From assembly GCA_008632985.1 (NCBI GenBank), contig QPGO01000049.1, positions 1 through 64,000 on the forward strand: a DNA stretch of 64,000 bases, read 5' to 3'. Numbering within the stretch: position 1 is the stretch's first letter; each line of letters opens with the position of its first letter. This document shows, one piece after another, positions 10,138 to 54,889 of the stretch. Source of the stretch: Psammoneis japonica. Its lineage: Eukaryota. The translations under genes were made by a program, and so were the position numbers. The notes below the pieces were generated by a model. It ran no database searches. It saw nothing but the letters and a program-made list of their open reading frames with translations, and was not told the DNA's origin.

Positions 10138-10981
10138 TGTCCTCAAATTCTTTCTACAACTACCAACTGCGGTCAGAGGTTTGCTCAATTTATCAAGAAA
10201 TCAAGTAAGTCGTCGCTGAATGAGACAAAGAACAATCGCATCAGCAGTCTTTTTATGGTGTCAGCATGGGATGCGGGATTCTCATTCGCGTCAACCACAA
10301 AATGGTGTTCGCATGATTAAATTCAGTGACACGATGCTTCTCATCGCATGGTAAACGGTGCCGTCATTTCCGAATTGGCCAACGCGGTTGCAACGTATCC
10401 AACAGAAACCCTTCAAGAGCCCACCGCCGTTGACCTGGACTTGTCCTCTGCTTCTCCTGAAATCTCATGAGCTGGAGAACCACGCTTTCATGTGCTGTGA
10501 AAAGCATCATGAATCATTCACGGTTGTGTTTCACTTGGATTCATGCATCCTCATTGTGCAACAGGCGAGTGTGGATACATGGCAGTCGTAACTGTAATGA
10601 CAATGCTTCATTCACACGCACAATACAACGATGAACGAACGCGATGAGCGATGACAGAGCTTGCACGCGGGCCACGCGAAGCACCACGCACGGCTCCGAA
10701 ACTAAACGGCATGCAGCATGCATGCACACTCTCCATCGTGAGTCCATGCGTCGACCGTACCGCGCGCGCTTCGCACACTCCCGGGGGTCTATGCGAGACG
10801 CAAGATTCTGCTCTCACCACAAAAGAAATTCTGCTCTCACCACAACGTAGAAACGTACCGAGCTCCTTCGTAGAATAAAAGCATTCTTTGCCGAAACGGA
10901 ATCTCGATCGACCTCTCCGATGCCGAGACGTGCGCATGAAACACACTCGAGGTCTCTTGTCGACCATGGCAAGCAAACGCC

Positions 10982-11674
10982 ATGCACAACCGTGTCCATG
11001 CACGGGGATCAAATGCCGAAACTCCATGTGACACTGTCGAGTGTGACGATGTAGATGGTCCCACGAGGGATGAAACACTCGACGAGCTGAGGGAACCGAG
11101 TTGTGGCACGGCGGCGGAGAAGAAGAAGGTCGTCGAGATCTTCATCACAAACAAGGCGGAAGTTGAGAACAGGATTGGCATGGAGAACACCCACGACATT
11201 GAAGCGTTCAGGAAATGCACTCCTTCTACCATTGCTGCACTAAATGAGACTGGTTTTGGAGCGGCACCCACGGCAACGGCATTGCCAGATTTGAGTGATG
11301 CACTTGATCGTGTGCAGAAGCAAGGAGAACTGCAGGGCGCCACTCGTGCCGGGCAGGCGGACCTGATCACGAAGGCTGTCAGCCAGGTGAGGGACACTGT
11401 GTTGTCAGCAAGAAATGCAGCTCATCACACTGCTTTGCATCAAGATCAGGCTGTGGTCATGCCCCTGACGGCCGAAGAGCGCGACAGGAAGTTTCTTGTC
11501 GGCGGACACCTGCCGGACGACCAAGCGCACCGTCAATGCATTCGATGTGGACATTTTTCTGTGGATGAGCCAAACAAAAATCAAAACATTGCACAGAGGA
11601 ACAAGAACAAGCTTGATGAATGGCAAGCTTCTGTCCAGGAGTTTGAAAATTGCAAGAGGAATGGCGCACCATGA
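10982..11674 (+). pseudogene. Degraded ORF inside the TIR element with a CxxCxH motif; function unknown
   Basis: 230-aa ORF with natural charged composition and QCIRCGH motif. It contains no Tyr, consistent with TpA erasure. Confidence 0.45.
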
Positions 11675-11899
11675 GGGACGGCATTTGCACTGTGCCATTG
11701 TGTGTGGATCTTCATTGGGATGGATTCCATGGAAAAAAAACAGATGCTCTAGAATCAACAATGCTGCTGTGTGGTCCGATTGTGTTGGTGCTGGAGCATT
11801 GTCGAATCTAGAGCAGTGTTGAACAATGAACCTAGAGCAGTGTCCAATCCAGAGTTGCGCTGAACAAAGATCCTAGAATGGCATCTAATCCAGAGCAGT

Positions 11900-12175
11900 T
11901 GACAGGATTTGAACAGGACCCAGGTGCGCGTGAAATGTCGCGCGCTGTTCAGTTTACCGTGCACAGTTTTGTGTGCTTTAGTTCTGCGTGTTCGTGCACG
12001 ATGTAGTTTGCTTTCGAGCCACAAGGCTCACAAGAATGACAACAGCAGCCCGATTGTGCCGACTTGCACGTCTTTCGGCTCCTGTGACGGTCTCTGAGCG
12101 GAGACTCATCTGCTGTTTAGACAGCAGCAAGGAGTTGTTGTTTGAATTCTTGCCATTTGCCTTCAATTTCTGTCA
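11900..12175 (+). repeat. 5' LTR
   Basis: Direct repeat of 18725-19000; TG...CA termini. Confidence 0.95.
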
Positions 12176-13110
12176 GATTGACAGTCTTGCTCATTGTCAA
12201 CCCATTGAGCAACCGCCATCGTCGTCGTTGATTTGCCGATGATGCCATTTCAATTCTGCGTGGACCTCCGCATGCATCCTGCACACATCGGCAAGTCCAC
12301 GCGCGTCCAACACCAGGCATCGGCAGGAATTTAACGTCACCGTCAAGTCTCCTCACCGCTGGATGTCTGGATTGATTGTGCTGCCTTTGATTGCTGAAGA
12401 CATGCATCAACGGTCACATCCAAGTCTGTCCTTGATCCTCATCCCTTGACACACCCATTCGTCGGTTAACGGTCAAGAACCCCACACATTCAAGGATCTT
12501 CGTCGCTGAAGACAGATGTGTGTGCATGTCTTCACGGCCAAGAACTTGTGCCCACTCTTCGGACTGCGTTTTTGCCACCACTCTACAAGCACGCCGAGTC
12601 CATTGCACCTGATCTACCCTGGACTGCTGGTGCTCCACAGTTCTGCTGGGTCCATGAGGACGACTGTGAGAGCAAGCAGCCGTGATTGCAGCCTGCGTTG
12701 GGGCGAGGGTGTTTTCCCGCGTTTGTTCGTTCGTCCACAGCGCCTGACGCCTGCGTCAACTGGCCAGCCTGATCGGGAAATCCAACCGATGTAAAATGAG
12801 AACGGTTCGGGGGTCTTGTCCACCTCCAGTCAGCTTGCCTGCAGGGGTTTGCAACCCGCCACTCCGCTCGCAAGCAACCCAAAGCGCCGCTGGCTGCGGG
12901 TTTGGACGTGCCGGCACAACTCTACGGACCGGACAGGAAGTTTAGCACTTGACAACGAACGGGATGGCACAGCCCGGCGACTTCTGATTTTAAGGTAGTT
13001 CAAGATTTCAAGTCAAGTCCATTTCAAGTCAAGTCTGTTCTCACCCAAGTTTCAAGTCTACCTTCGCTTCCCAACAAGAATTGCTTGTCCTGACACCACC
13101 TTTGTCTACC

Positions 13111-16100
13111 ATGGTTCTCACTCGTCAGCAACAAACTGATGGTTTTGAGCACATTGTTGGAACCGTGCTTGCCCAAGGTGCTGGGAGCCCTCTTCGTTTG
13201 GCTTTGATCCAAGATGGCACGGACTCGCATCAAGAACTGTTCACGTTCATGCCGTCCCAAATCGACTCGCTTGAGTGCGACGACGGCACTAATGTGATCC
13301 CTTTGCCCCGCGGTTATAAGAACATGTTAGCAGCTCTAATTAGTCTGTACATTGTCAAAGCACACGAAGGTCTTGACGTTGCCAATGACTCCTCGTTGTT
13401 CACGCATGACGAGTTCCTTGCCTGCCACCTCAGCCCCGACTGCATGTCTTCTGTGTCCGTCGGCAGCTCACCCCTCGCACCTCCGCATGTCACCAACCCG
13501 ACCAAGGCACGCGACCCGGCACGAGACTTCAAGCGAGGCATCAAGCGTGACCCCACCGCTTTCACGGCTCTCAAATCCGACAAGCAGTGGCACACTTGGC
13601 ACACCTCACTTGTGGCACAAGCCTGTGCCCAAGACGTCGAGTGCATTCTAGACTCGTCGTACAAACCGACCAGCACCGAAGACAAACTGCTCTTCGCTGA
13701 ACAGCAAAAGCACATGTTCGCCGTCTTCGAACGCATCCTTCTCACCGACAAGGGCAAGGCTCTCATTTGCGAAAATGTGGGGTCTTCTGATGCCCAGACC
13801 GTCTGCCGCGCCTTGTCTGAGCATGCGCTCGCCTCCACCCGTGCATCTGTCAAGTCCTCCACCTTGCTCACGCACCTCACCACCGCACGTCTTGGTGATG
13901 GTGCTTAGAAAGGTCCGACCCACGGGTTCATCCTTCATTGGCAAGATCAGTTGCGCAAGTGCGAGGCACTCATCCCGGCCAGTGACCACTTCTCTGAAGG
14001 ACAGAGGCATGTCATGCTCGAGAATGCCACACACCCTGTCAAGGAACTCCATGCTGTCAAGAACCAAGCTGATCAGCATCGTGCACAGAGTGGCAAGAGC
14101 CTCACATGCGATCAATGCTGTGGCTTGCTCCTCTCCACGGCGGCTCAATGCGACAGTGCATTTCAACCCAAGACGACGCCTCGAGCTCCCCGACGTGCCA
14201 CACACACACACGACGTCTGCTCCGAGGAACCATCCGACGATGTGTTCTGCGACATTGACAGTGACATTGACGTCCTTCAGGCCAATGCTGCCTGCACCCG
14301 TGGTCCCAGCCTCGCCGGTGACCAATGGAAACGTCTCCCTCCCGACCACCAACGGATTTGGGATTCGCTGCCCCATTCCTCCAAGGTGATCATCCTTGAG
14401 CATTCTCGTCTGCCTCCCCGCAACCCGCGAGGCAGCAACTGCCATGAGTCCGTTACGGCCAACCTTCACGACCAACACCTTGGGAGTGACGGTGATGTCA
14501 ACTTGTCCAACACGACTCCTGCTCACTCTGGTGACCCCGCTCCAAATGTGGACGCCAATTCGGATGATCCCATCCTGGCGCACCTCACCAAGCGCAAGCC
14601 ACTGCCACCCGGTGATCTGCAATGTCTGTTGTCTCCTAACCAAGCCCCCAACGCCAGTCGACCGGGGCCATCCGCCGCTCCCTCTACCCCGCCAGCTCCT
14701 GCCGATGACACAGAACTCAACGGCCGCACTTGCCGCCGTGTCAATGACCACAATGTCATTTGCTCTGCCTCTGCTCATCGCTCCACACGCACCGGTGCTC
14801 CAGTTGATCGTGGGGCCAACGGCGGCATTGCTGGCGACGACATTCGCATCATTGCACGCACCTCTTGCCAAGTCGACGTTCAGGGCATTGACGACCATCA
14901 GTTGGTGGACATCCCCATTGTCACCGCTGGTGCCGTCATTGAGACCCAGCATGGTCCCGTCATCGCCATCCTCCATCAGCACGCATGCACGGGCAAGGGC
15001 AAGACCATTCATTCCTGCGGCCAGCTCGAATGGCACAAACAGGATGTCAACGATCGCTCTGTCAAGGTGCCCAACGGCTTGCAATGCATTGCCACTCCTG
15101 ATGGCCATGTCATCCCCATTGACATCAAGGGCGGCCTGCCTTGTGTTGCCATGCGACCTCACACTGACGCCGAATGGGACACCCTGCCAGATGTCATCCT
15201 CACCGGTGATGACACATGGGATCCTTCCATCCTAGATCACTCTGTCACTGACGACGACCAGTGGCACGACGCGATCTCTGACCCACAGGACGATCCCACT
15301 GCCAACCTGTTCGACGAATGCGGCAACCACCGTCATCGTGTCGTTGTCAATGAGACCATCATGTCCGCTTCCTTGTCTGCCGATCATGCGTCCGCCCTCG
15401 ATGATCACCTCATTCCGAACAACGACGTGTTCTACGAGTGTCATCTACACGCGATTGACCCCAAGGACGATGACGTTCCGCCCCCGGAGCGCACTCTGCA
15501 GCCCAAGGACCCCCCCTTCGAGTCTCTTCGGCCTTGCTTTGGCTTCCTGCCTGCCGACACGGTCCGTCGCACTTTTGACTGCACCACGCAGTGCGCCCGC
15601 ATGCCCGCCGGTGCACACCTTGGGAAGGCCTGCAAATCACCCAACCCCGCCCTTAATGTGCACCGCCGCAACGAGCCTGTCGCCACTGACACCGTTCATG
15701 CCGACACCCCGGCCGTCGACTCTGGTTGCACCAGCGCCCAACTGTTTGTTGGCACCGAGTCTACCGTCACTGATGTCTGCGGCACCAAGACGGACAAAGA
15801 GTTTGTCAACACACTTGAGGATCAGATCCGTGAGCGTGGTGCCCCATCCAAACTCATTGGCGACCGTGCTCAAGTTGAGATCAGCAACAAGGTGCTCGGG
15901 ATCCTACGAGCCCTCTTCATCTCCAGCTGGCAAAGTGAGCCTCACCAGCAACACCAAAACTTTGCCAAGCATCGATGCCAGACCGTGAAGCGCATGGCGA
16001 ACACTGTCATGGATCATTTCGGTTCGCCTGCCCACACATGGCTGCTGGCGCTCATGTGCGTGTGCTTCATGCTCAACCACACAGCGTCCCCACGTCTCCA

Positions 16101-18777
16101 CTGGCGCACGCCCCTCGAGACTCTCACTGGCTCCACTCCGGACATCAGCCCATTGCTTCGCTTTCACTGGTGGGAACCCATGTGCTTCCACTTCGATGAC
16201 TCCGATTGGCCACCCGAATCCCGTGAGTTGCGTGGACGCTTTGTTGGCATTGCTGAGCACGTCGGCCACCAGATGGCCTTCAAGATTCTCTCTGACGAGA
16301 CTCAGAAGATCCTCTGCCGGTCCAACGTATGATCCGCCACCACCGATCCTGCCATTCGAAACCTGCGTCTTGATCCCACTGATGGGGAGCCACCTGAACC
16401 CATCATCAAATCTCGCCATGACGACAACCCCATCAACTCTCCTGATGGGGAGATCAGGACACCCAAGATGCCAGTTTTTGATCCGCAAGACATCATCGGA
16501 CGCACCTTCCTCATGCAGCCACAAGAGGACGGACAACGCCACAGAGCTCGCATCGTCAAGGCCATCGAAGACCACGAATGGAAAGTGAACGGCAATCCCG
16601 AGCTCACTGGGTTCGTCTGCTCTGTCAACAACGACGAATGCGAGGAAGTCCTTGCCCACAACGACATCATGAATCACATTGAGCAAGAAGACGAAGACAC
16701 TGCTGTTTGGAAATTTCGACGCATCGTGTCACACGAAGGACCTCTGAAGCCTCATGACCCAACCTGGAAAGGCTCAAGCTACAACATCATGCTTGAATGG
16801 GAAAGTGGGGAGATCACGTCCGAGCCTCTTGCCATCATCGCCAAGGACAACCCCGTCACCTGCGCCATCCATGCACGAGAGAACGGACTTCTCGACACTG
16901 ATGGCTGGAAGCGGTTCCGCACCATCGCGAGGCGCCAAAGAAGCTGTTTCGCATGGCCAACCAAGCCAAGCTTCGCTCTTCCGCACTGCACCTCGCTGCA
17001 AGTGTGGGTGCGAAGTTCCCCGGAACTGCAAACACGCCATGTCACTAGACGAACGCAACGGCAACCGCAAATGGGGAGACGCAACTAATCTCGAGATGGA
17101 CCAACTCGAGGAATACGAAGTCTTCCATGACTGCGGGCCCTTCGAGTCTTCCACTCCTCCTGCGGGACACAAGAAGATCCGAGTGCACCCAGTGCACGAC
17201 GTGAAACACGACGGTCGCCACAAGGCACGACTCGCAGCCGATGGGCACCTCACGGACGTGCCCGTCAACAGTGTCCACTCCAGAGCAGTCTCCCTCCGTG
17301 GCCTTCGGCTGATGATTTTCCTGGCCGAACTCAACGAGTTGGAGACATGGGCCACCGACATTGGCAATGCCTGCCTTGAAGCCACCACCAAGGAGAAGCT
17401 CTACATTGTAGCCGGACCCGAATTTGGCAAACTCGAAGGACACATCCTTGTCATCCACAAGGCCCTGCATGGACTGCGCAGCTCCGGTCTCCGCTGGCAC
17501 GAGCGCTTCGCCGACTGCCTGCGAGCTGAAGGCTTCTTCCCCTGCCGCGCCGAACCCGACATTTGGATGCGCAGGAACGGCGACCACTGTGAATGCATTG
17601 CCGTTTATGTGGATGACCTCGCCATTGCTCTGAAGGACCCTCAATCTTTCGTCGACACTCTCACGGAAAAGCACAAGTTCAAGCTCAAGGGTGCGGGACC
17701 CATTGAGTTCCATCTGGGTTGCGACTTTTCCCGGGATCCCGACAGCACCTTGTGCCTGTCTCCACGCAAGTGCATCGAGCGCATGGTCGACAGCTGCACC
17801 CGACTGTTTGGGGAGAAACCCACCACCAATGCCCTGTCACCTCTGGAGAAGGGTGACCACCCCGAACTGGACACTTCCGAACTGCTGGACCCGATGGCAT
17901 TCACAAGTTCCAGTCTCTTGTTGGTTCACTCCAATGGGCAGTGTCCCTTGGTCGAATTGACATTGCCACGGCCGTCATGTCACTCTCTAGCTTCCGAGCT
18001 GCACCCCGTCAAGGCCACTTGGATCGTGCCAAACGCGTCTGTGGGTGCCTCTCCAAGATGCGACACGGCGCTCTCCGCGTTCGCACGGAAGAGCCCGACC
18101 ACTCGGATCTCCCTGCTCCGGCCTGTGAATGGATGCATTCCGTGTACGGCGAAGCAGAAGAGATGATCCCGAAGGATGCTCCACCGCCCCTTGGCAAGTT
18201 CGTCACTGCCGCCCACTACGTCCATGCAAACTTGCACCATTGCATGCTCACCGGACGCTCTGTCATGGGAATGCTCCACTTCCTCAACAAATTCCCGGCT
18301 GGTTGGTTCTCTAAGAAGCAAGCCACCATAGAGACTGTGACCTGCGGGTCTGAATTTGTTGCCGCAAGGACTTGTGTCGAGCAGATCATCGACCTGCGCA
18401 TCACCCTGCGCCACCTTGGCGTCCCGATCCGTGGTGTCAGTTGCATGTTCGGTGACAACAAGTCGGTTGTAGACAGTGCCACCATCCCGCACTCCAAGTT
18501 ACACAAGCGACACACCGCACTGTCGTTCCACCTTGTGCGTGAGGCAATTGCCTCTGGTTGCCTTGAGTTCCACTTCATCGAAGGCTCCCGCAACCCTGCT
18601 GACATTCTCAGCAAGCATTGGGGTCACTCCCAAATCTGGGACCTTCTCCGACCCCTCATGTTCTGGAACTTCATTCCATCCGAAGTCGAATCTGTTTCTG
18701 TGGCTCCTCAAGCAAACTGGGGAGTGACAGGATTTGAACAGGATTCAGGTGCGCGCGAAATGTCGCGCGCTGTTTAG
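13111..18777 (+). pseudogene. gag-pol polyprotein pseudogene (gag, aspartic protease, integrase, reverse transcriptase, RNase H)
   Basis: RDFKRGIKRD (gag), VDRGANGG (protease), VATDT...DRAQVE...SEP (integrase), KARLAADG, ATDIGNA, YVDD (RT), FGDNKSVV and NPADILSKHW (RNase H). Stops at ~13906 and ~16330; frameshifts at ~16940 and ~17890. Confidence 0.92.
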
Positions 18778-19000
18778 TTTGCCGTGCACAGTTTTGTGTG
18801 CTTTAGTTCCGCGCGTTCGCGCGCAATGCAGTTTGCTTTCGAGCCACAAGGCTCACAAGAATGATGACAGCAGCCCGATTGTGCCGACTTGCACGTCTTT
18901 CGGCTCCTGTGACGGTCTCTGAGCGGAGACTCATCTGCTGTTTAGACAGCAGCAAGGAGTCATTGTTTGAATTCTTGCCATTTGCCTTCAATTTCTGTCA
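18725..19000 (+). repeat. 3' LTR
   Basis: Direct repeat of 11900-12175, followed by TSD GCAGT. Confidence 0.95.
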
Positions 19001-20300
19001 GCAGTGTTGAACAAACAACCTGGAGCAATGCCGGTGTGGAATCTAGAGTGGCGTCAAACAAAGAAACTAAAGCACTGAGTGGCATGGAATCATCCAATCT
19101 AAAACCAGTTGCAAGTGAGTCACTCCCTCCGAGTCACTCAGTTTTCGACGAGGCGCGACAGATGGTTTCTAATGCAGTGCGGTTGACAGCATTCGACAGA
19201 CAGCATTCGACATGACAGTGCAGACAGCATTCGATGAAATGCGACAGCTGGTGCCCGACATGAAGCTGCAGATGGCATCAGATGCAGTGCTGTGGCTGGC
19301 ATCCAACACGATGCTGTGGACGGCATCCGACGGGATGCACAGCATCCGACGCGACACTGCATTCGACGCGACACGCTAGATGGCATTTGATTTGCTTCTT
19401 CTTCCATGCTCGGAATCTTTGAAGCAATGGTGAGGCATGTCTTGGACAGATCTACTCGAGGAACTGGAGGAACTGTTGTCTTCAGGTGGCAGTTCCTTCC
19501 TGTTGCCCTGTTTCTCGGAGCGCTCTGCTCTTGCTTTCTTCACGTCGACATCATTGTCCTCTGACAATGCTGCTGCAGCTGATGGTGTTCGCTTTCGACA
19601 CGGTCGCTCACTCATGGCAAATGTGTCCTCTGACCAAGCTGTTCAAAGCAACAACAAAAACAAAAAGCACCATCAGTTCCAAGCACGACCACAACAACGA
19701 AAGCAGTGTCGCAAAAACGCCTTTTTGACACGATGACAACACTCCCCATGACAATGCAACAATCTCAGGCGCTCTTCTCAATGCAATGAACAAACAATCT
19801 GAGCCATGAAAGACAACAGATGAAGCCGCATCTGCAAAGTGTAAACGATGCGGCCAACGGCATGGGATCAAAAACCACAACGCAGCGTTCAGGCGCTCTT
19901 CTCAATGCAAAGTGCAACAAAAAATGAACCTTTGCGACCTCGTCGAGAGGCGTTTGCACAAAAACCTTGATGGTGAGATTCCATTTCGGTAAAGAATGCA
20001 CTTTTTCTACGAAGGAGCTCGGTGCGTTTCTACGTTGTGGTGAGAGCAGAATTTCTTTTGTGGTGAGAGCAGAATCTTGCATGAGAGACCTTCGGGTGCG
20101 TGCGAGCGCGCGCGCGAAGAACGGTCGACGCATAGACTCCTCACGATGGAGAGTGGAAACGGCAGAGCCGCAACGACGCGACGCGCGACGCTCCGAAACC
20201 ACCGCCCAAATAAAAAATCAGAATCACACACCACACTCTACACTCTCTCTCCTTGCTACTCGACAAGTGACTGAACAGGCAGCACAGGCTTCGTGCATAC

Positions 20301-21242: not shown

Positions 21243-21362
21243 TAGTGAGCTTTGAATATCACTAATACGCTCGCTTATCGTATAGGAAGCGTTTGGTGGC
21301 TCCCATAATCTTGCGCGACTGCTTGGCACTATTAAAAAATGACAATTCACTACATTATCATT

Positions 21363-22690: not shown

Positions 22691-23204
22691 GGTCTCTTTC
22701 TTCTTTTTTGTTTTTTGTCCGCTTTGTGATGCCCCTTGCGATGGAATACGGCACCTCAACCGGCGAGCGAGAGAAAAAATGTGTGGTGAGTTTTTGTCTT
22801 TCGACGGAGCTCGCACAGTTCCCCTCATAACCTGCCCCCTTCCGCCTGGATTTGGCGTGATCATTCTTATAAATCGCAGTGCAGCCATTGGGACCATGAC
22901 TGTGCGGGTTGAGCAAGCATTGAGAGTTTCAGTTTTGCACTGGGTGAACTCTCCTTCTTTGAGTCTGTGGGCCCTGCAGTGTGATTTCCAATTTCTGGGA
23001 CAACCCCGACCACTTGACGCGCCACACAACATGACACACTGCCGAAAGGACTTTTTTTAGAGAGCGAGGGTGGTGCGGCAGGGGGGGGGGGGGTTGCAAG
23101 AGGACGTGCACAAAATTTCCTCACACTGGCACCATCTTTCTGCATGAAATTGTTGGTTTCACAGCAGCTGCTCTGCAAGTCATTTGGCCCTTGATGCACA
23201 GCTC

Positions 23205-23840
23205 TGACAGAGAAATCGAGGATGACTCTGGGTGGAAGAAAACAATGACTCCTTGCTGCTGTCCAAACAACAGATGAATCTCCATGCAGAGACTGTTGCA
23301 GGAGCCAAAAGACTGGTGTCATGACAGTGGTGCCACTGTCACCATTCTTGTGAGCCAAGTGGCTCGAAAGCAAACTGCACCACGCGTCGCGCGCGAAACT
23401 GAGAGCACACGGAATTGTGTGTGACAAACCAAAATCTTGTTCAAATCCTGCTGTCACTCCCCAGTTTGCTTGAGGAGTCTGCAGAACAGATGATTCAAGG
23501 TCAGATTGGTTGAAGGCCTTGGGATCAAAGCCCCAAAACATTGGAGGACGGAGGAGGTTCCAGGCCTGGGAGCAGCCCCAATGCTTGCTGAGAATGTCAG
23601 CCGGGTTGTGGGAACCTTCGATGAAATGAAACTCAAGGAAACCAGAGGCAATCACCTCATGCACACAGTGGAATCAGAGGGTGGTGTGTTGCTTGTGTGG
23701 CTTGGAGCATGGGATGATGGCACTGTCCACAACTGATGTTGTTCCCAAACATGTTGTGACACGTGTCACGAGTGGAAATGCCAAGGTGATGCAAAGTGAT
23801 GCACAGATCAATGATCTGTTGAACATGTGTCCTTGCAGCA
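23205..23840 (-). mobile_element. Truncated second CoDi-like copia copy: RNase H C-terminus, PPT and LTR (23456->23205)
   Basis: NPADILSKHWGCSQ and QIIDL...VVDSA fragments, gcaaactggggag then TGACAG...CTGTCA, and LTR core cagtttgctttcgagccac shared with the intact element. Confidence 0.88.
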
Positions 23841-26800
23841 CTGATGACACCTTTGTGAAAGACAGAGAGCTGCAGACAAATCTGTGCAATGAGTGGTGAT
23901 GGTGCAGAGGAAGAACGCGGTCTTGCTTGCCAAGAACAGGGGAGTGTGCGGTGTTGTGGCCCCATGTGCACTCGGCGGCAGCGCTGATGATGACTTTGTG
24001 AATGACAGAGAGCTGCAGACAAATTGGGACAGCAAACAGTGATGGTGAAGAGGAAGAAGAGCACGTGTTCATGCATGACTGGCAAACAAAACCTCCTCAC
24101 TCCACATGGCAGGGCAGTGCACAAAGCTCAATTTCCCATCTCTTGGCAGTCAGGGCAACAATGCACTTTTTCTTCATGCAGTGGCTTGCTTTGGGAGTGG
24201 GGCACTGTGCCACATGTCACTTAGATGAGTCAGTTGAAGCACACTGGGCTGTCAAAATCTGTTTGTAAAAAGCCCACTGGAGTCTTCAGAGCCCCCTTCA
24301 GTCAATGCCGCAGCTTCACTCAGACAAGTTGATGTCTTTGGAAAATGAGGCAGGCTTTGGCAGTGCTTTGTCTCTCTGCAGTGGCCAGACTTGCACTGGC
24401 TGGTTTGAGCCCAGGCAAACATTTGTGTGCAGCTCTTGATGCTGCCAAAGGACTTGGCAGGTTGACCTTTTTTGATTTCTTTGTTGCCAAGAAGCAAGAA
24501 GTGTTTCCACAGTGACAAAGAGTTGAGCAGCATGCACAGCACAAACTTTTTGAATTTTGAAGCAGCTGGCACTTTCACTCACCCCATGCACATGTCTGTG
24601 AACCCTTCCTCAGAAACTCAAGACCAACTTTTGCAGATGACATGATGTTGCCATCCTTGGCATCACCCAAGTGGTTGGTGATCACATGACAATGTGTCCA
24701 AAGCTGGCGTGAGGTCAGATTGAAAAGAAAGTGGCACACACCACCACAGCATCGCGAGAGGACTCAGCATGATTGGTGGATGCAAGGAAGTGGAGGACCT
24801 CCCCAAAACTTGCCAAGGGCAGCAACAGCCCAAGACATTTTTCCCAGCAAAGTCAAATGGGGGGGGGGGGGCACACAAGAGCCAACAGAGCTGGCTGCTT
24901 TTGAGAGCTGGCAGTGCACTCCTCCCATGCCCATCATCCCATGGCACCATGGCTCAAAAATGGAAGAAAGTCTCATTTGACCACTCTTTCTCTCATCCCA
25001 GTTGTTGCTGCCTTGCATGCAGGACCTTCACCACTGCTGACAAAAGTCTGACAGTGCCAAGAACTCCCTGTGTTCTCACCTGCCATCATGCTTTTGAAAG
25101 GCAGTGAGGCACTCAGCCTTCAGCCTCTCCTTCTGGATTGAAAGTCTTGACAATGAATCCAGCATGATGTTGGGGATCCATGTGTTGTCACACAATGTGT
25201 TGTTGACAAGCTCAGTGAAAATTTCCACCCACAGCAGGAGCTGATGCAGGCATTGATGATGCAAAAAAGTCTTGCAGAGGCAACAAAATGTGGGCAACCT
25301 GGGGTGTGGGGTGTGGGGCCCTGCAGCTCTGAAAGGAATTGCTCGCTTGTGTGCATCTCCCACAACAATTCATCAGAGAGGTGAAAAAGGCAGTGCAAAT
25401 CACAGGTTGTCATCCCCCCACGCTGAGCCAGTGTGCGCATGGTGGCTTCATTCATTGGGTGGACCCCTCACACATTCAATTGCATGGTTGCTCATTGGTG
25501 TCTCACCCATTTTATTTGTTTGCACATGTCCACATTTGTCCTTCATCTCATTGTTGCCCTCTGACCCAAATGTGTCATTTTTCACATTCTGACTTTAGCT
25601 CAACAATTGACGTCGTGCCTGACGACCGGCACATGTTTGTGGATTTCCCAGCAACTGCATTGGATGTTTTCTTGCTTCATTGCCATTCAGCAACATTTCT
25701 GTCTCCCGATCATAATTTGTGCATTCAATGTGTTCTTGTTGTTTGTTGGCATGTTGCATCACAGTGTGGCAGCAAGAACAGCACTGCAACCACAAACACA
25801 CATGCTGCATTGAGTGAACCGGCTGATGTCAAAAACACTTTGGCTGTCCTGTGATGTTTCTGTGGCAATTTCACCATGTCAACTTTTGCTCACTGTGTTT
25901 TTTCCAAAGTTGACAGTGCAGCCTAATTGCATCACCTTCACCGCCCCATCCCACCCAAGACAAGTCTGTCAAGCCCATTGACTCCACTGATGATTGTTCT
26001 GAAGATGGTGTTTGCAGCATTCTTGATTCTCCTTTGTGCAATGACCCAAGTGTGAGCGCTGCTGTTGGCACACCATTGTCATCTGCAGAGAAAGCATGTG
26101 CCCACCTTGGGTGCTCCATTGGGTGCTCTCTTGCCTGTGCAGATGTTGAAGGTAAAAAGGAAGCATCATCCAACATCTCCTTCAGCCTGCAGTTTCACTG
26201 ATGGCAGCACTGAAGAATCCTCTGACAACAATGAAGATTCCATTGATTCTGCAGATTCTGGCAGCACGGAATTGCTGCTGGAGGTCACCCCTCTTGCAAA
26301 TGATGAGTCAGTGGAAGATTTGTTTGATGATGGCAGTTGCACTGACAATGATGATGATGATGACAATGACAAAACCAAAACTGACTCTGTGACTGCCAGA
26401 AAAACTGGCTCAGTGAAAAAATGTGGTGCACCATTGCTGACTCTTCTTCTGTTGTCCAGCTGCATGAAGAGTTGCTGATGTCCTTTTTCCCTTTTTTAAG
26501 TCATTGAGAATGATGACAATGCAATTGTGCTCACAAGCGGCAATGGCCAATGTTGCATTGCCAAACATTGATTCAAGAGGACAAAGGAAACACAACGGGC
26601 AAGGAGGGCCTTCCTTGCCAGTCTCAAGTGGAGGCCCACTCCTGACTTTCCTGTGCTGCCACATTTGTGGCACAATCCCAAGAATGGATTGTGCCACTTT
26701 TTTGAGTGCAAGTTGTCGCTTTCAATGACATCATGGGTCAATCTCTTTGATGCAAATGCAGCTTCCATTGCATTTGAAGCTGTGGTTGGACATGCCAGTT

Positions 26801-29800
26801 GGAAAGGAAGAATGGGAAGGCCACTGGGCGGTTTGTTCTGCAGTGTCAGAAAATTGCAGAGGCCTTCAACAGCCTGGGGTGCTGTGGCAAGAACCTGATT
26901 GCCACGGTGGATTTCATGTGCCAGATTGTCAAGTCCAAAAGTCTCTGCAGCTGCTCAGCATTCCTGCAGAAGAGCACCTTCATTGCCACAGCCAATTTCA
27001 TGGCACAGACTCAGAGCATTGCCCTGCATCCACATTGGAGACTCTTTTCCTCCCTCATGTCAAGTTCAAAAAGGCAGCACATGCTCCTGGTGCAAATTGG
27101 TCTTTTCTCAGTGCTCAAAACCAAAGATGTTTGTGCTTGCAGCAAACAATCTCCTGCAAGCAGTCAATGCCGACACAAAAGTTAAATCTGGCAATGTGCT
27201 GAAGAACATGCTGAAGACAGGCCCAGGTGCAATCAAGGACCTTGTCTCTGACAAGGCTTGTGATAAAAAAAACAGCCCTTCATTCTGATCAAGTGGAAGA
27301 GCAGATGTGCAACACATTTTTGAAGAACTGCAAGAACCCCAACTGCCAGAAAATGAAGAATTTGGCAATTGTTCACTTGAGGGTTCATGACTTGATGTGC
27401 AAGGGCCTCAAGCCAAAGCAGAAAGAAAATTTGACCTCTTTCATGTGGATTGGTCTGCCTGGGATGGGCCAGAAGCAGAGTGGTTCTGGATCTGCCAAAG
27501 GCCAGCATTTTTCTGACTGTGCCAGTGCCTGATTGCAGTTCTGTTTTCAAAATGTGTTGCATTGTTGTTGTTTTTCGAAATTGGGATCTCTTGCTCCCTC
27601 CAAAAGAAAGAAGGGCATGGAACCCCCCGGCACTCTCAGGATCTCTCCAGCTGTCCCAATGCCAAGTTCTCCCCCCCTCCCCCATGTGTCAACTTGTGCA
27701 TGACCTGGATGACAATGACAATGATGTGTCTATTGCTGACCACAATTCCAGCCCCGGACTTGAAGTCCTTTTTTCATGACAACTCCAAAGTCTGTTTCTT
27801 TGGACCACTGGGAAAGTCATTTCCCACCACAGCACAAATGTCCCATCTCCAGCTTGCAAGAAATTGCCAAGGTCACTCCTCATGTTCATGTGTTTTGCAA
27901 TGGGGTGGACAAAGATGGTAATGTCAACAGGGGTCCAAATGACCATGAGCTCCTTCTGTGTCACTTCCCATTTAATTTCCACTTTCTTTCAAACCTCTGC
28001 ATGTAAAAACATTCCTTTGAGTCAGCCAGGCCTCTCCCCAATCCAATGTGACATTTTTGTGAGTTGAGCGCAGTCCCTCCCCACACAACAAAGATTTCAG
28101 CTGGTCAAACCATGCTCTGTTCTGATGACCAGCTGTTTGCAAAACATTTTCCTGGGCTCAAAGTCCATTTTGGCACATTGGCACATTTTGTTTTGGAGCA
28201 TGGCAACAGCAATGAGAAACATGATGAACAATGTCCTGGAGGGCCGGTGCACAATGATTGTTGAATCAACTTTGGTTGTTGTGGACAGAGCTGGGTGCAT
28301 TGTTGGAGCTGATGGTGAACCAGAGCTGTCTCCTTTGTGTGGCTTTGACAAATTTGATGTGGGCAATGACAAAGAATTCTTTCTCAAAGCAAAGGCCATG
28401 TGGGCTGATGCCTTTGATTGCATGCAGTGCTGCCAAGATGAGTTGTGCCTCAAACCTTTTGATCTGCCACCTTTCCACAACAACAAGGAGTGGACTAAAA
28501 AGTTTGGCCAACAAGCATGGGAGGAACTTGGTGCTGAATGTGCTGGCAACAAGAATTGCATGATCCGGCTAAAAAACATGAGGTGAGGTGGCAGGACATG
28601 TGAACACAAGAACAAGCAGGGCTGCTGCTGCAACACTGGATGTCTTGCTTGTTTTGGAAGGACAAGGTTGGAGACATTTGGTCATTGAAAATGTTGTTGA
28701 ATGGCTGTGGCAAGGCAGAAAATTGCTGCATTGACAAATTCAGAATGAGAGACCTTGAGGCAAGGGTTGGTGTTTTTGCTCATGCCATCAACCGTGATTG
28801 CAGCCGGTTCATCAGGAAACACTCTGGTCTAATTCATCTCTGCAAGGGTGATCTTTCCTGTTGCCACCCAGAAAAGCTGCGCATGGGAGTCAGTCTCCTT
28901 GCAATTGAAGGGCAACACAATGCAGGACACCATGGTGTTCCCCACTTCAGTCATGAAAGAATCTTTGGCTTTCTCTGGCCAAGACCCCCATGTGCAACAT
29001 TTGTGAGGACTTGAGTGTTTGTGGCTGTGTGCAGCTGGCAATCATGGCAAGCTGTCAGACTGGCTTTAACTGGTTCTTCTGCATCTGCACCAAGCACTCA
29101 GACAAGTTGCACAACTCTCCAGAAACTGCCGCTCTTGTTTGTTTCCATGACATGCCATCAAACTTTTTGGAACAGCTGCTGGGGACATTGGAATGACCCC
29201 TCATTGTATGAACCCAAGCAGACTGCAATGATGTCCATGATGATGGTTGTTCTGTGGGGAATGGCAAGAAACAACATCGCACTGCCAATGATGAATCCAG
29301 CAATGTTTCTCCGGGAAAGAGGAGACAAATCAAAACACCAAACAAAAGGAGGATTGCCAACAGGTGGCATCAAGTGAAGAACCAGAAAACTTGGTTGTGA
29401 ACCAAGCAATGGAATGACATCAGATGTCATTGCCCTGCTGGAGTGGACTGATGCAAGAACAGGCACTCAAAACTTCCATCATTTCCCAGTTGAAAAAGAG
29501 ATTCACAAAATGTGTGCTGGTTGGTCTCATGAAACCAACATCAACAAATTCTGGGTGATGCTCATCACACAAATGCTCATTGGATGCAGCACAATCATTT
29601 TGGGACACAAAGATCTGTGGGACTTGGTTCATCCTGTGGTGAACCTTGGCGCAGCAATGCAACTTGCTCACCTGACAAATGATGAAAGGGCAGAAGCATT
29701 GGAGATTCTTGCACAAAATTTTGGCATCACCCATCACAGAGACAATTGCAAGGAGCAAGTGCATCACCTGTGAAAGCCACAGAAAAAGAGTTGAAGATTT

Positions 29801-32329
29801 GATGAAGAAGCATTTTGTCAAGAACCAACATCTCTTTTCCCCAGCGGGCCTGGACGGCATTCCTGGCATCAAACAACATGGTGCACACTGCTGGGAGAAG
29901 ATGCTGACTCTGTTAGAAGCACCTGCTGATGGACCCAGGGTGGACAAAGAAATGGATCTTGCCACCAATTCAACACATGACAGAGACAAAACCAATGGCA
30001 CCAATGTTGAGGCCAGCGGGATTGGGGACAATCCCATGGATGATTGCAGCACCAATGTTGAGGCAACTTGCATTGGGGACACTGATGTGGATGCCCATGG
30101 TGCCAATGTTGAGGCAAGCAGGAATGCTGACACTCCTGCAGATGATTTCAGTGCTGATGTTGAGGCCAGTGGGATTGGGGGCAATCTTGCAGATGATTTC
30201 ATTTTGGATGGTGCAGCAACGCAGGAAGGAGGAGAGCACCACACAATCCAATGTGAGCAATGATGACACACAGTTTGCTGATCCTGCCTCCAATGACAAT
30301 GCTGTTGACATTTCTGCCTGGGAGGTGCAAAACCAAGGAGAGTTGGTTTTGGCAAGTGAAGCAATTGTTCAACCACCATCCAGGACTGAGGTCAAGGCAC
30401 TTTTCTTGTGCATGACACAGACCAAAGACATCAACACAGTGTCACACCACAATGTGCTTGACAACACCAATGGACATTTGGTTCACTGCAATGCAAAGAT
30501 GTGTGTTCCTTTGCATCCAGGCTGCCAGCATGTCAGCAATTGTTGTGCAGCTGCAACCACTCTGGAATCAAAGATTGTAAATTTTGCATGGTGTCTCTCA
30601 GCAACAGTCATGAAGAATGACACCCAAACTGCAACATGTGCAGCCCAAACTTCCGAGATGAAATGCTGAGCAAGTTTGGCAGCAATTTTGCAGAAATTGA
30701 CATGGACTTTTTCTGGCTACAAAAGGGTTGGTTGAGTGACAAGTTCAGCAAAATGTTCTTCAGCAAGATGACACTGGATCTGGCAGTGGCAATGAAAGAA
30801 GGTGGAGCCTTCTTTGTGTTAACATTGGGACGTTTCTCGGTCATGTGGAACACAAAAACAGAACACAGGAAGTGCTCAAGTCAAGGTGCTGTTCCCACAT
30901 CTGGAAACAAAAGTTTTGCTTCATGAGCCATGCTGTCATGGTCACTTGGATGAACATTTGTGCCACAAGAAACTGGGGCTGAGCTGCTGACGACAGATGG
31001 AAAAGTGCCTCACTGGTGTCTTGCACCAGGAAATCAGGGAGTTTGCTCCAGAAAGCCCAAAAATGAAGCATGGACTAGATTGAGGAATGAGCCCCAGCAG
31101 GTTGATGTTTGTCAATGGATTTGTTTTTTTAGGAAGAGGCAAGACAAGCAACAACCATCATTGGTGTCTTTCTCAGCTGGACACAAAAATGAGCAATCCA
31201 ACCATTTTATGAGATTCTTGGATGCTGGTCCCAACAGGAGCAGACAAGACACATGATGGTGTGATGAACAGTCATTCAAATTTGTCCAACCACCTTGCAT
31301 GTCAAGATCAACCTTTGTTGTGCGTCACTTTTTTTTGCCCAATTGTTTCCTGAACTCACTCCAAAATGAAGTGCCTTTTTGTTCACCATGTCAGACAATG
31401 TGGATTTCTCTCTGAGGTTTCCCAATCTGCAACAGGATTGCACTCTTGCCCAGCCAATGGAGGTGAGGCAAAAACCACAGGGTGATGAGTGGTGTGCTCA
31501 TCTTGCTGCAAAGAATATCATTTGTCACCTCGGCAATTTTGGAACAACTCAAGATAAAATTGATGCTCTTTTGCCCCACGAGGGAAACTGTGCCAATTGT
31601 TGTCATGATGTTGGGCAGAACCAACAATGTGCAGTTCCTGCGTTGGACTTGCAGACTGACTGGGAAACTGCATTTGGGGAGATGTTCCCAGTGCACAAGC
31701 CATCACAATTTGTCACTGTTGTTTCATCAATGCCCACTTTTTCAAGAAAGTGGAAGGATGGCACACAGAGCTTGACATCAAAAACACTTCTTTTTGAAGA
31801 GAGGATGGACCCATGCACTTTCAAAGCCAAGGCCCCTTCAACATTGTTGACGTGCCAATGGCAGACAGGAAGTTGCAACAAAAGAATGGATTGCTGACAA
31901 AGAGATGCAATCTGCACATGACTTGCAGAGAGGCTCCCATTTCTGGTGCACCAGTTGTTGTCTGGCAACTTTTGTGGGGCTTGGGTGCATCCAGAGATGC
32001 ACAAGCAGCTGTGTGTTGTTGACAACTTGCCACCAATTGTGCCCAAGGAATCCACAATTTCATTGGGAAAAAAGGTTGTGGGAGCACCCATGTCAATTCT
32101 GATGGATGGAAATCATTTGCAATTTGTCACTGACTGTCATTAAAAGGAAAACACAATGCATTCAGGCACGGTTTGTGTTCATTGGAGCAAGAAGTGAGAT
32201 GCAAAGAAACCTCTGCTCCTTGATGCAACATCATCATGCAGCTGCATGTCTGACCAACAGTTCTTCACATGTTGTGCAGGAGCTGTCTGGTCTGCACCCA
32301 AAAGCTGCACTTGTGTGCACCATTGGACT

Positions 32330-34800
32330 TTCCTGCCTCTTGTGCCATCATGTCTCTTGTCCACTTGACAAAGACCTCTGCCCACTTGATTCTGGGTTGA
32401 ACTGCAATGACTGTGTGCTCTTTCCAAGAGTTGGGTGACAAAATCTGAGGGAGGAACTGGGTCTGCATTGTGTTTTGTCTGGAAACACAGGAGGCCACTC
32501 TTTGTGCAGGAGATGGGAATGTGTTGCATCGACGGATTGCTGCTGCTCTGAAATTCTTTTGTCGGCAATGTGTGAACAGCCTGGTGTTGCCATGGGTTGA
32601 CTCACACACTGTTGCCAGCTTGCAATTGACAGAATGAACAATGGCCTTCACATCACCAGTTTTGTCCTTGTAAATCCCAATGACTCTCACAGGGCATGTG
32701 TCATTGGAGCTGTTGTCCATGTTCAAGTCAACAGCAGCAGCTCAATCACGCCAGGATCTCTCCTTGGAGTGGTGCTGTGGGTGGGCATGGGGTGCAAAAA
32801 CCAATGTGGGTTGTTGAGGTCTTCCATGATGTTGGCAGATTTGGGTGTGGGCAAATCAACCCTTTTCTTTGTGATGGTCTTTCTCAACCTGCCATTGACA
32901 CACTTCTCAACATCAGTCTTGACCTCTTTGTCAATTGGGCCTTCGCACCTGTCCTGTGGGATGGGACACACAAGGGATTTGATGCATTTGTGGGAGGGGC
33001 ATGAGACAGATTGCTTGCCATTGACAGCCTTCAAAATTGTCCATGATTCAACAAATGGCTGGTCCATCTGGAGATTGTCAAAGTTGTCTTGCTTGCCATT
33101 GACAGCTTTCAAAATCTCCCATGATTCAATGAATCGCTGGTCCATCTGGAGATTGTCAAAGTTGTCTTGCAACAAAAACCCAAAGCCGAGCAGCTTGAGG
33201 TTCTTGATGACAAATTGGGTCATCAAAGGTTTTCTGTCAAATGTGTCACTGGCATTGTGGTCTGCAGCACAACACAAATCTTTCCTGAAAGGAAAGGTGC
33301 TGGGAGGCAATGCTGGGTTGTTTTTTGAACAGCTTCCTTGGGAGCACCAGCAGCCGACATGTTGGATGGTCTTTTCCTTTTCTGTCCATGCCGGTTAGAA
33401 GCCACTTGACTGGACTGCTTTTTCCCAAAAGCAGTGTTGTCCAATTGGTTGCCATTGGCTGCAGCACTCTGCTTTTCCTTTTGTGACAGCCAGACAGATG
33501 AGGCAGATGGAAAGGCAGCGCATTTCTTTGTTTGTTGTTGGCAAGCCTTTTGCACAATCTCACAAGTGCCTCTGAATTGCATTGCCACAGTGAGGCAAAA
33601 CAAGGTTCCCATCTTTTCTGTGTGGGTCATGAAGGTCATTCTGGTGAAACCAAAGATCAAACAGTCTTTTGGACAGTTCCCACATGTGGTCAACCTGGTG
33701 GACCCCACTGCTGCCACCAACTCCTTTTCAAACTTTTCTTTTTTCCTTTGGCATCAAACCACAACACATGACAGTGGCTGCATTCTCTCCACCTCTGGCC
33801 TCCCAAGAGCGCAGGTGATTGTCAGCAATGGCAGCGAACACACCCCACAGGTTGCCCCCAAAGTCAACACCATCAACCACACATTTGTCAAAGAGTGCAT
33901 TGTGTGCAGTCTGGCAAGCAGGGCTGCGGCTGGCTTCTGCTGCCATTTCAGGAAATCTTCCATTCATCCATTGGCTGTGATTCTGTCGGAGGAGGCACCA
34001 TGACAAACAAGGGTCATTTTGTTCAGGCACGACACCATCTTTGCATTCATTGGAGTGCAAGACAGTCTGTTTCCTTTTGTGGGGAGGAACATGCTAGAAG
34101 TGCTCATTGACAAACACATGCACAGTTGGCGGACCCAACCCATGCCACCTCCATTGGTTGCTTTAAAACCACATGTGCAGTCCTGTGATTTCTGGTCTCC
34201 AAAAATTGGAGCCTGCATGAGAGTGTGCACCAGACAATGTCACCACCCAAATTTACCATCATCCTGGGTGGGTGCTTCTAAAGATGCTTCAAATCCTCCA
34301 ATGAAAAAGAAAGCATGTCATGGTGCACTTGCATGTTGGTGGATGAACCACATGGTGCTGAGTCATCCTTGAGGGAGTTGCCATTTTTCTTGGTGCAACC
34401 AGACAAACCACCTTTGTCTGTGTTTGGCATGAAACCCAAATGATGCCAGGAGAAAGAGTGTTTGCAAGCTTTTCCTCTTCATGATGAGGACACAGAACAG
34501 CCAGGGTTCAAGCAGACATCATTGGCAGGTGTCAGTTCCCATTTGGTCTGCATGCAAGCCTGTTGGAAGAAGGAGGTCTTTTCTGGATCAAAATCTTTGG
34601 GAAGAGCATTGCTTGTGCTGTCAGAGCACCATTTGTTGCCAACTGTTCCTCTGAGGTCACAGTCATCCAAGGGAACAAACTTGCAGAACTGTTCCTGCAT
34701 TGATTGGTTGACATTGAGATTGTGATGATCTTCAAAAAGAGAGTGGGCAAGCAAGTCCCTCAACATGTCCTGCATTCAGAAACGGGTGAGTTGGCACCCA
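32330..34800 (-). pseudogene. Fossil Plavaka-like (CACTA-related) transposase
   Basis: Minus-strand fragments LRDLL..LFED..NLNVN, GLHADQMGTDTCQ*CLLEPWLF, DFGGNLWGVFAA, FHLPHL...KLFKKQPS and KWAEVF resemble motifs I recall from diatom and fungal Plavaka-like transposases. Many stops and frameshifts. Confidence 0.55.
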
Positions 34801-49100: not shown

Positions 49101-49519
49101 CGTCTGGGACTTCAATGTCCACAATCTGCTTGATGCTCTCACAACCACATTTTCTTTTTGGTGTGTCACAACAATGCTGCCAAAAACATGCAAAATGCCC
49201 CCACGGAGGTGGTGGTGGCCATTTTTGTGCTGCCAGCTGTTGCAACGCCGGCAGTGCTCTTGGCCATGGTCACGCATGTGGAGCTGGCAAATCTCAAGCT
49301 CAATCTCAGCCACAAGAGCCTGGCAGGAGGAGCCCTCAGAGAAGCCAAGGCTCTGCCACTGGAGCTGCTGCAGCACCAGCTGATGGCCCCAACTCAGCAA
49401 CCACTGCCACTGCTGCTGCATCCATCAACAACAAAGCCACTGCCCACCACCCCAATGTGGCCAATGCGCCCCCACTCTCCAGCCATTCGTCCACCCAAAG
49501 ATCTCGAATTTCTCATGCA

Positions 49520-50860: not shown

Positions 50861-51104
50861 CTTCCCAAATCAAGAGTGCAAAGGCACTGCAATTGAGCCA
50901 ACCCACTCAAGAACTGCAGGCTGAGTGCATTTAGGGTGCATGTGGTGCAGGCAGCAACTCAAACCAATGTGCATTGATGGTGATGATGATGATCTGGCTT
51001 GGCATTGGCAAACATTCGCTGGGACATGGGGACACCACCACATGCTCCATTTGAGTTTCTCAAGTGGCATTGGCCTGTGCATCATGTGCCATCCACCCGG
51101 CACC

Positions 51105-52174: not shown

Positions 52175-52208
<34 letters not shown>

Positions 52209-52383
52209 CACACATCCAGCCAGGACAACAAAGTGGATTGTGACAGGGGTGTGCCATTGTTGTTGTTGGATGTCAGATTGGAGGATGAGTTGTGCAGCAT
52301 CCAGCAGGAAAAAAGGACAGGTGCAGCAGAGACAGAGCAAAGCAAAGACAGAGAGCTGACAAAACGAAACAAAAGGAAACAAA
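51105..52383. repeat. Direct duplication of ~570-600 bp (51105-51670 and 51779-52383)
   Basis: Both copies start ctgcaagcctgttgctccaattggagacaccaagac and end gagctgacaaaa.gaaacaaaaggaaacaaa. Confidence 0.9.
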
Positions 52384-54700: not shown

Positions 54701-54889
54701 TTCAGATGAACCAATGTGGGCCACAACACACACTCACCGGTGTGTTGGTGTGTCTGGCACCACTGATTCTGGACCAACGTTGATGCCGGTGTGTGGTGCA
54801 AGATGTCAAGCACCCAGCTCCACCCCTGCAACTCAAAGAAAACATAGAAAGAAAGCATGTGAGCAAGCAAAAAACATCTTGAGTGCCAC

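Follow-up and report, generated by a model that had tools for sequence, protein, structure and literature searches.

Tyrosine codons lost from a dead Ty1/copia retrotransposon in Psammoneis japonica, probably through TpA-directed hypermutation of repeated DNA

To our knowledge, targeted A:T to G:C hypermutation of eukaryotic chromosomal DNA was unreported before a 2026 preprint on a chlorarachniophyte alga. In that preprint, mutation-accumulation lines of Bigelowiella natans acquired 302 nuclear point mutations, 231 of them within two regions of integrated viral DNA; with one exception these 231 were A to G or T to C, and the GC-biased ones are stated to lie all on TpA (10.64898/2026.01.13.699255). 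The preprint also gives a rate of about 6e-7 per site per generation for TpA to TpG or CpA in integrated DNA of nucleocytoplasmic large DNA viruses (NCLDV) and virophages, notes in the Discussion that ADAR and ADAT favour a 5' U, and proposes, without proof, an ADAT2-like DNA adenine deaminase as the agent (Mettrop et al. 2026, bioRxiv 10.64898/2026.01.13.699255). Here, we describe a retrotransposon at 11900-19000 of a 64,000-nucleotide (nt) stretch of Psammoneis japonica DNA (contig QPGO01000049.1 of assembly GCA_008632985.1, positions 1 to 64,000, the whole of which we call the window), in which most conserved tyrosine positions encode Cys or His. We consider it probable that this is a dead Ty1/copia element whose Tyr codons were lost as a by-product of a TpA-specific hypermutation acting in repeated or silenced DNA. 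This would appear to be a second lineage with such hypermutation besides B. natans, here with retrotransposons near saturation.

The open reading frame (ORF) at 13909-16329 encodes a single Tyr (TAC at 15433) beside 30 Cys and 49 His, in agreement with a preliminary description of this DNA that had claimed one Tyr for a 793-aa ORF lying within it; among 120 homologues of the reverse transcriptase (RT), the median Tyr and Cys contents are 4.6% and 1.1%. In RT and RNase H, where we tallied the in-frame columns that are at least 80% conserved among these 120 homologues, 13 of 17 conserved Tyr are replaced (9 by Cys, 4 by His), compared with 17 of 290 other conserved residues (Fisher p = 8.5e-12); the catalytic Tyr of the YVDD motif is among the four retained. 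In protease and integrase, with columns at least 70% conserved and holding at least 40 residues among 150 representatives of a full HMMER search, the corresponding counts are 6 of 6 (3 Cys, 3 His) and 14 of 168 (p = 1.1e-6). Among the 19 conserved Tyr that were replaced in the two tallies, no substitute other than Cys or His occurs. The 69 Tyr of an intact relative, L001 (1852-aa ORF, 58% identity over 1760 aligned residues), align with C 29, H 18, Y 8, F 4, N 2, I 1 and others 7, and in the same alignment Phe is retained at 41 of 62 positions and Trp at 24 of 26; nine more relatives gave the same picture.

The preliminary description had anticipated that an alignment with homologues would find Tyr replaced well beyond other residues, and had read TAY to TGY together with TAY to CAY as A to G change on both strands. 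Both expectations were borne out, the second by Cys:His ratios of 9:4 in RT/RNase H, 3:3 in protease/integrase and 29:18 against L001 and by the enrichment of both TG and CA. Its view of a targeted change rather than a general decay is likewise supported, with other conserved columns changed at 6-8%. It had predicted that codons containing TA would dominate the changes; the remaining replacements are mostly derived from TA (Val to Ala through GTA to GCA, twice; Thr to Ala through T/ACG to T/GCG, the slash marking the codon border) or from CG (C/GGN to C/AGN, ACG to ATG, GCG to GTG). Six of the motifs that it took for former Tyr sites were found (GNACLEA, KALHGL, RKCIERM, TCGSEF, LRHLG and HQHAC), and in all of them the residue in question aligns with Tyr of the homologues. 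Two others received no support in the form proposed: in TTQCAR, taken for a former TTQYAR, Tyr is present in none of the 8 aligned homologues covering the column, which have F or L there, and SCMFGDN is absent from the conserved Tyr columns of the RT/RNase H tally.

The Tyr codon, on which the preliminary description centred, is not itself the unit of change. TpA is depleted also in the non-coding long terminal repeats (LTRs), in the repeat that surrounds the element and in TA-poor domains making up about 62% of the window, and the unit is therefore the TpA dinucleotide. Positions 13111-18777 contain 35 TA, an observed/expected (o/e) ratio of 0.14, with TG at 1.57, CA at 1.34, CG at 0.87, AT at 1.03 and GC at 0.99. 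The whole element contains 52 TA (o/e 0.154), where base composition predicts 338 and the median of the relatives predicts 237, and its GC content is 57% versus about 47% nearby. An intrinsic composition of the family is ruled out as the cause, since TA o/e lies between 0.46 and 0.99 in 79 of 80 related loci from metagenomes (mean 0.72, standard deviation (sd) 0.125); the element lies 4.5 sd under their mean. The 80th relative, locus L053 (1-1388), has 1 TA in 1388 nt and an integrase with 0 Tyr. Among the 150 representative proteins, 7 have less than 1.5% Tyr and carry Cys or His where the element does, and the Tyr to Cys/His pattern is seen in P0241, P0295, P0307, P0335 and P0354 (P0335 has 0 Tyr in 654 aa). 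Judged by these sequences, similarly mutated elements of other copia families are present in public data. We also considered a protective context at the surviving TA, which are often cTAc; six of the 13 mutated conserved Tyr codons of RT/RNase H were cTAc too, and the idea was dropped.

Is the depletion confined to the retrotransposon? Three further blocks of the window (Table 1) have TA o/e of 0.04-0.08, CG of 0.10-0.26 and TG and CA of 1.8-2.1, with a longest TA-free run of 1884 nt, and their borders are sharp: TA o/e is 0.07 over 56001-56500 and 0.95 over 56501-57000, and it drops from 0.56 over 40001-40500 to 0.00 in the next 500 nt. A Pfam scan of the 123 ORFs of at least 110 aa in the TA-poor blocks and the host repeat gave 0 of 123 above the curated cut-off and three weak matches below it. 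The longest TA-free run also contains a tandem array (49540-50740; period about 190 nt, copies 76-79% identical), over which runs a 642-aa ORF without a Pfam match (48968-50893, forward strand). The region 6551-7951 is TA-poor as well, but TG and CA are not enriched there and we excluded it from the phenomenon; it overlaps a purine-rich 607-aa ORF (6104-7924, forward strand; TA 0.12) that has no Pfam match, an AT skew of about +0.4, a GC skew of +0.3 and internal tandem repeats.

Depletion follows repetition across 11000-24000, the stretch over which copy number was assessed by read-word depth. The unique flank at 20548-23151 has a word depth of about 52 and TA o/e of 0.29-0.80 in 500-nt bins, whereas repeated sequence, with depths from 400 to 150,000, has TA of 0.0-0.3. 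The host repeat reaches about 390-1150, and the summed depth of the copia family, about 58,000-157,000 from 13,620 contigs (run X1), suggests copies of the order of a thousand. These values bear on the idea of a genome-wide TpA bias without any targeting, under which transposons simply drift to a TA-free equilibrium wherever selection is absent. In its favour, genic and unique parts of the window have TA o/e of about 0.3-0.8, with 1-kb bins mostly near 0.5. We regard it as very unlikely, given that the unique and apparently non-coding sequence at 20.5-23 kb retains TA of 0.29-0.80, that values of 0.95 and 0.07 meet within 500 nt, that the B. natans signature is limited to particular regions (10.64898/2026.01.13.699255), and that a young insertion (LTRs 94.6% identical) has lost most of its TA while only 2 LTR differences in 277 nt lie outside pyrimidine-purine (YpR) dinucleotides.

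The LTR pair bears on both the timing and the substrate of the change. The two LTRs of one insertion are identical at integration. In this pair, 15 of the 277 aligned sites have since diverged, by a transition in every case and by no transversion. Thirteen of the 15 differences fall in aligned YpR dinucleotides (among them 4 CG/TG, 2 CA/CG, 2 TA/CA, 1 TA/TG and 2 CA/TG), an excess, as about half of the positions lie in YpR. TA was lost in the 5' LTR at one place and in the 3' LTR at two, to CA and to TG. Since the differences run in both directions and are of both kinds, editing in one step, be it of the RNA or of either cDNA strand alone, is excluded; and since both LTRs belong to one insertion, whose target-site duplication is still intact, the process acted at least partly on integrated DNA, and on both strands.

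A manual count over these small numbers puts the loss since insertion, per LTR copy, at about 30-50% of TA and about 12% of CG, so that within one sequence TA appears to be the faster of the two to decay. The two losses are separable, as the young element has TA o/e of 0.15 but CG of 0.87. The order in which they proceed, from the young element through L053 (TA 0.01, CG 0.46) to the old blocks (TA about 0.04, CG about 0.1), is that of TA lost before CG, which fits the faster TA decay. CpG decay co-locates with the loss of TA, which suggests that the hypermutated domains are a methylated, silenced compartment. A separate observation concerns the metagenome loci L009, L023, L029, L041, L050, L055 and L056, which have CpG o/e of 0.15-0.25 and are just mildly low in TA (0.46-0.78), pointing to CpG decay without the TpA process in other hosts.

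The process recurred in separate copies, at some sites with different outcomes. An older fragment of the family within the window (Table 1) has TGC for one ancestral Tyr codon that reads CAC in the element, the two opposite outcomes of TAC, and where the element retains GTA or TTA the fragment shows GTG or CCA. In five repeat pairs of the window, differences of CA against TG account for 59 of 83, 24 of 35, 10 of 27, 10 of 24 and 6 of 6 adjacent transition pairs, and such adjacent pairs are about twice as numerous as predicted under independence. A CA facing a TG is what would be expected if an ancestral TA or CG had been hit independently in the two copies. A processive, strand-coordinated mutation was tried as an alternative and rejected, the order of TG and CA being random in all five pairs (runs tests, P = 0.19-1.0). 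Other copies of the family in run X1 differ from the window copy at 487 transition places and 63 transversion places; in 40 of the 568 rows of differences, which hold 35 events, 27 of the events exchange one of TA, CG, TG and CA for another, and in six of these 27 the other copies keep TA where the window copy has CA or TG.

Could the changes have been made during retrotransposition, by ADAR- or ADAT-like editing of the RNA or APOBEC-like deamination of single-stranded cDNA, and have been fixed at integration? From the LTR differences alone one would predict less depletion of the element body than there seems to be, two copies have some of their Tyr to His changes in common, and many copies share states against the window copy, all of which would suit such a route. 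However, editing of the RNA would yield TA to TG only (in the sense direction) and editing of minus-strand cDNA TA to CA only, while both are found here in similar numbers. The strand asymmetry expected of ADAR or APOBEC3 is thus missing, and we rejected RNA or cDNA editing as the identity of the process. Moreover, the two LTRs disagree in both directions and kinds although they belong to one insertion, and TA has been lost likewise from the host repeat and from 30 kb of blocks that could not be classified. We give editing coupled to retrotransposition hardly any weight.

The sequence shows the signature itself, its symmetry between the strands, its origin at least in part after integration, its recurrence in different copies and its restriction to repeat domains with sharp borders. 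The mechanism that we favour would change A:T to G:C at TpA, which is a palindrome, on either strand, converting TpA to TpG or CpA at a rate well above that of other sites and, per site, apparently above that of CpG decay in the same sequence. In codons, TAY (Tyr) would become TGY (Cys) or CAY (His), and GTA would become GCA or GTG. The agent would be an enzyme working on chromosomal DNA, likeliest a TadA/ADAT-type adenine deaminase, a group with a preference for 5' T/U, whose product inosine is read as G. It might be directed at transposon or heterochromatic DNA as a genome defence, by analogy with repeat-induced point mutation (RIP) of fungi; repetition, small RNAs, chromatin state or foreignness may mark out the domains that it attacks. 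A slower decay of CpG to TpG or CpA, presumably by deamination of 5-methylcytosine, accompanies it in the same domains, where it dominates in the older blocks and accounts for some of the LTR differences. The window ORFs that were scanned with Pfam contain no deaminase domain.

A chemistry that begins at the thymine would leave the same traces. Dinoflagellate 5-hydroxymethyluracil prefers TpA, and oxidised thymines mispair with G. A dioxygenase of the TET/JBP type, or another modifier, may mark the T of TpA (as 5-hydroxymethyl- or 5-formyl-uracil), and mispairing or misrepair may turn it into C. The palindromic TpA with a symmetric mark, like CpG methylation, fits the strand symmetry and the domains, and the co-location with CpG decay suggests domains marked in their chromatin. 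The signature is identical to that of A deamination, so that the sequence favours neither; the sole experimental precedent proposes adenine deamination, likewise without proof (10.64898/2026.01.13.699255). We consider the thymine route unlikely, if well worth keeping in mind, and adenine deamination the better candidate.

Several points weigh against TpA-directed hypermutation as we propose it. The direction, TA to TG or CA, is deduced from the homologue consensus and from the depletion rather than from a rooted tree of the copies, and the signature is read from substitutions in assembled sequence instead of de novo mutations. The LTRs lost about 30-50% of their TA per copy, against 76-100% of the conserved Tyr lost in the body, and the share that predates insertion is not fixed by these figures. 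One ancestral Tyr codon reads CAC in both the element and the older fragment, and at some places all other copies agree against the window copy; part of the load may therefore have been inherited from source copies that were already mutated. Gene regions, too, have a lowish TA (about 0.5), and a weaker genome-wide component is possible.

A further reservation is that the four supporting sequencing runs, among which no RNA run is listed, share one sample, which may be the one that the assembly was made from. This would also suit an artefact of sequencing or assembly, in which a modified base at TpA is taken for C or G within repeats, the more so as the repeats were assembled out of many near-identical copies. 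Yet a 2785-nt read contig from the low-copy part differs from the window by 7 letters and 4 gaps, and another of 2900 nt (single-copy depth, 66) enters a TA-free block with 0 differences over 23791-24000 (210 nt). Strand-dependent misreading would break de Bruijn contigs at each TA, the LTRs hold fixed and differing states, and independent public records (L053 and the Tyr-free proteins) have the same pattern. An artefact is scarcely credible on this evidence.

The element is a Ty1/copia LTR retrotransposon, as seen from its copia-type RT, its TG...CA LTRs, a 5-bp target-site duplication and the integrase lying before the RT. The RT ORF matches PF07727 (RVT_2, copia-type RT) with E = 3.9e-23 and 82.7 bits against a cut-off of 31.6; the remaining mutated pieces of the element, the integrase ORF included, gave 0 Pfam matches, as did the gag-like ORF. 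The order of the domains comes from the alignment, in which the ORF 13909-16329 matches the integrase part of the relatives' polyproteins and the RT is next in these. The copy is dead, with two in-frame stops and two frameshifts. The preliminary description had called the element structure well preserved, which, given these stops and frameshifts, is right only in part. The frame changes can be placed by other family copies among the read contigs, which have an extra base behind 16936 or 16977 and, for the second change, an extra G behind 17886. A CoDi clade or diatom label for the element is no more than plausible; the relatives compared are metagenome sequences. Inverted repeats enclose the insertion and about 1 kb on each side, and the copia element appears to be nested in another, moderately repeated element that is TA-poor with normal CpG.

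Table 1. Features of the retrotransposon and of the TA-poor domains in the window (positions in the 64,000-nt stretch; o/e, observed/expected)
Feature	Position	Strand	Remarks
Target-site duplication GCAGT, 5' copy	11895..11899	+	5 identical bases beside both LTR ends
5' LTR	11900..12175	+	TG...CA, termini TGACAG...CTGTCA; 94.6% identity with 3' LTR
gag-like ORF, 304 aa, 3 Tyr	12994..13905	+	aligns with N-terminal part of relatives' polyproteins
In-frame TAG stop	13906..13908	+	
ORF with gag end, protease and integrase, 807 aa stop-to-stop	13909..16329	+	alignment to relatives
In-frame TGA stop	16330..16332	+	
Reverse transcriptase ORF, frame 2, frameshifted relative to upstream ORF	16748..18163	+	RVT_2; YVDD Tyr kept
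RNase H and C-terminal ORF, frame 1 again (second frameshift)	17857..18774	+	
3' LTR	18725..19000	+	276-nt direct repeat
Target-site duplication GCAGT, 3' copy	19001..19005	+	
Host repeat around copia insertion	10727..20155	.	inverted repeats 10727-10905 / 19975-20155, about 180 nt, 86% identity; its parts within ~11000-20000 have TA o/e 0.06-0.21, CG o/e 0.71-0.94
Second, older family copy, fragment (3' pol and LTR)	23240..23840	-	72.6% identical; TA- and CG-poor
LTR element and surrounding repeat	~11000-20000		TA o/e 0.04-0.32 per 500 nt; CG o/e 0.71-0.99, near normal
TA- and CG-poor block	22851..38990	.	no recognisable protein domain; TA o/e ~0.05, CG ~0.1-0.2, TG and CA ~1.8
Second TA- and CG-poor block	40401..56500	.	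sharp border
Third TA- and CG-poor block	61501..64000	.	continues past window end
Gene-like and unique parts of window			TA o/e ~0.3-0.9; CG o/e ~1

Outside the repeats, the window contains a few gene-like sequences. An ORF at 1670-2929 (reverse strand) encodes an HBS1/eEF1A-like GTPase with the GTP_EFTU and C-terminal domains, and upstream of it an ORF at 3113-3787 (reverse strand) has a UBA/CUE domain; because homologues have an N-terminal UBA, the two are probably exons of one gene. The named relatives of this gene among its 120 best matches are only Stephanocyclus, Thalassiosira and Nitzschia (53-61% identity), and its closest matches overall reach 66% identity, or 70% in one shorter alignment. 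Judged by this single gene, the host would most likely be a diatom, or close to the diatoms, and lack a near neighbour in the database. A PAN/Apple-domain ORF (9112-10197, reverse strand; PF14295, E = 1.8e-8) lies in a TA-normal part of the window. Also TA-normal, and GC-richer, is a 799-aa ORF without a Pfam match (57822-60218, forward strand), which has short internal repeats at 58602-58843 and is overlapped by a 435-aa ORF on the opposite strand.

The mutation rule itself produces reading frames. TA to TG or CA destroys TAA and TAG, and a new stop arises only via TAA to TGA, which leads to long ORFs on both strands; indeed, each of the six frames of the element has 1-5 TAA and 2-7 TAG, and two frames have few TGA (8 and 10). 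The preservation of ORFs remarked on in the preliminary description is real in that conserved non-Tyr columns are only 6-8% changed, so that the copy is young in other respects, but it is partly the product of a rule that removes stops. Such stop-free ghost ORFs are deposited as proteins, as the seven Tyr-poor entries among the 150 representative homologues illustrate, and if our reading is right, algal gene catalogues would gain Tyr-free ghost proteins from a process that never creates stop codons. Dating by LTR divergence would be badly biased in such genomes, given that nearly all LTR differences lie in hypermutable dinucleotides. A second, unrelated algal lineage would, if true, make a candidate for a general defence out of what had seemed peculiar to one species, and would point to an editing of DNA adenines that occurs in nature within a defined dinucleotide context. 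It would also offer a natural substrate in which to search for the enzyme and its targeting rule, with thousands of copies of varied age, LTR pairs as clocks and sharp borders.

How does this locus compare with the systems described so far? In the literature searched, which left most subscription journals outside its coverage, we came upon no account of diatom transposons mutated at TpA, and a term search of Maumus et al. 2009 (PMC2806351) found none either. Fungal RIP is alike in that a dinucleotide-biased transition hypermutation inactivates chromosomal transposon copies, on both strands and in sharp domains. It differs in its chemistry: RIP changes C to T mostly at CpA, raises TpA and AT and creates stops, whereas here TpA is removed, GC is raised and stops are removed. 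RIP was thus rejected as the identity of the process, with TpA depleted, GC raised and CpA enriched rather than consumed. The CpG decay of methylated transposons likewise turns a palindromic YpR into TpG or CpA in silenced repeats, and it occurs here too (CG o/e about 0.1 in older blocks), but it gives no TA loss. ADAR hyperediting and APOBEC3 editing of cDNA share with this locus the transition clusters that a deaminase drives in retroelements; their substrate, however, is RNA or a single strand of cDNA, and their traces are asymmetric between strands, while those here are symmetric and at least partly post-integration.

The closest likeness is to B. natans, as described in the preprint. In both, TpA becomes TpG or CpA on either strand, with an A to G bias opposite to the usual GC to AT; in both, long-term TpA depletion with enrichment of CpA and TpG is found in clusters of neighbouring windows, and the TpA-poor coding sequences of B. 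natans are enriched for reverse transcriptase and DDE endonuclease domains. As there, the change here is A:T to G:C at TpA and clusters in regions of mobile origin, with the unique flank spared. The lineage is different, since the named relatives of the HBS1-like gene are all diatoms and no B. natans is among its 120 best matches. So is the degree, with a TA o/e of 0.03-0.15 across tens of kb in this window and of 0.45 in the NCLDV region of B. natans. The targets proven there are single-copy viral insertions, whereas here they are a high-copy LTR family and unclassifiable repeats; a strong CpG decay co-occurs here that the preprint does not describe; and the evidence consists of de novo mutations in B. 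natans and of substitutions at this locus. Taken together, we speculate, as a tentative proposal that falls somewhat short of probable, that diatoms or close relatives run a RIP-like defence of opposite polarity, in which an enzyme that deaminates adenine or modifies thymine at TpA of transposons and other silenced DNA has erased nearly every TpA and Tyr codon from a family of about a thousand copies within 5% LTR divergence, and which would represent, with Bigelowiella, a defence widespread and possibly ancestral in SAR (stramenopiles, alveolates and Rhizaria).

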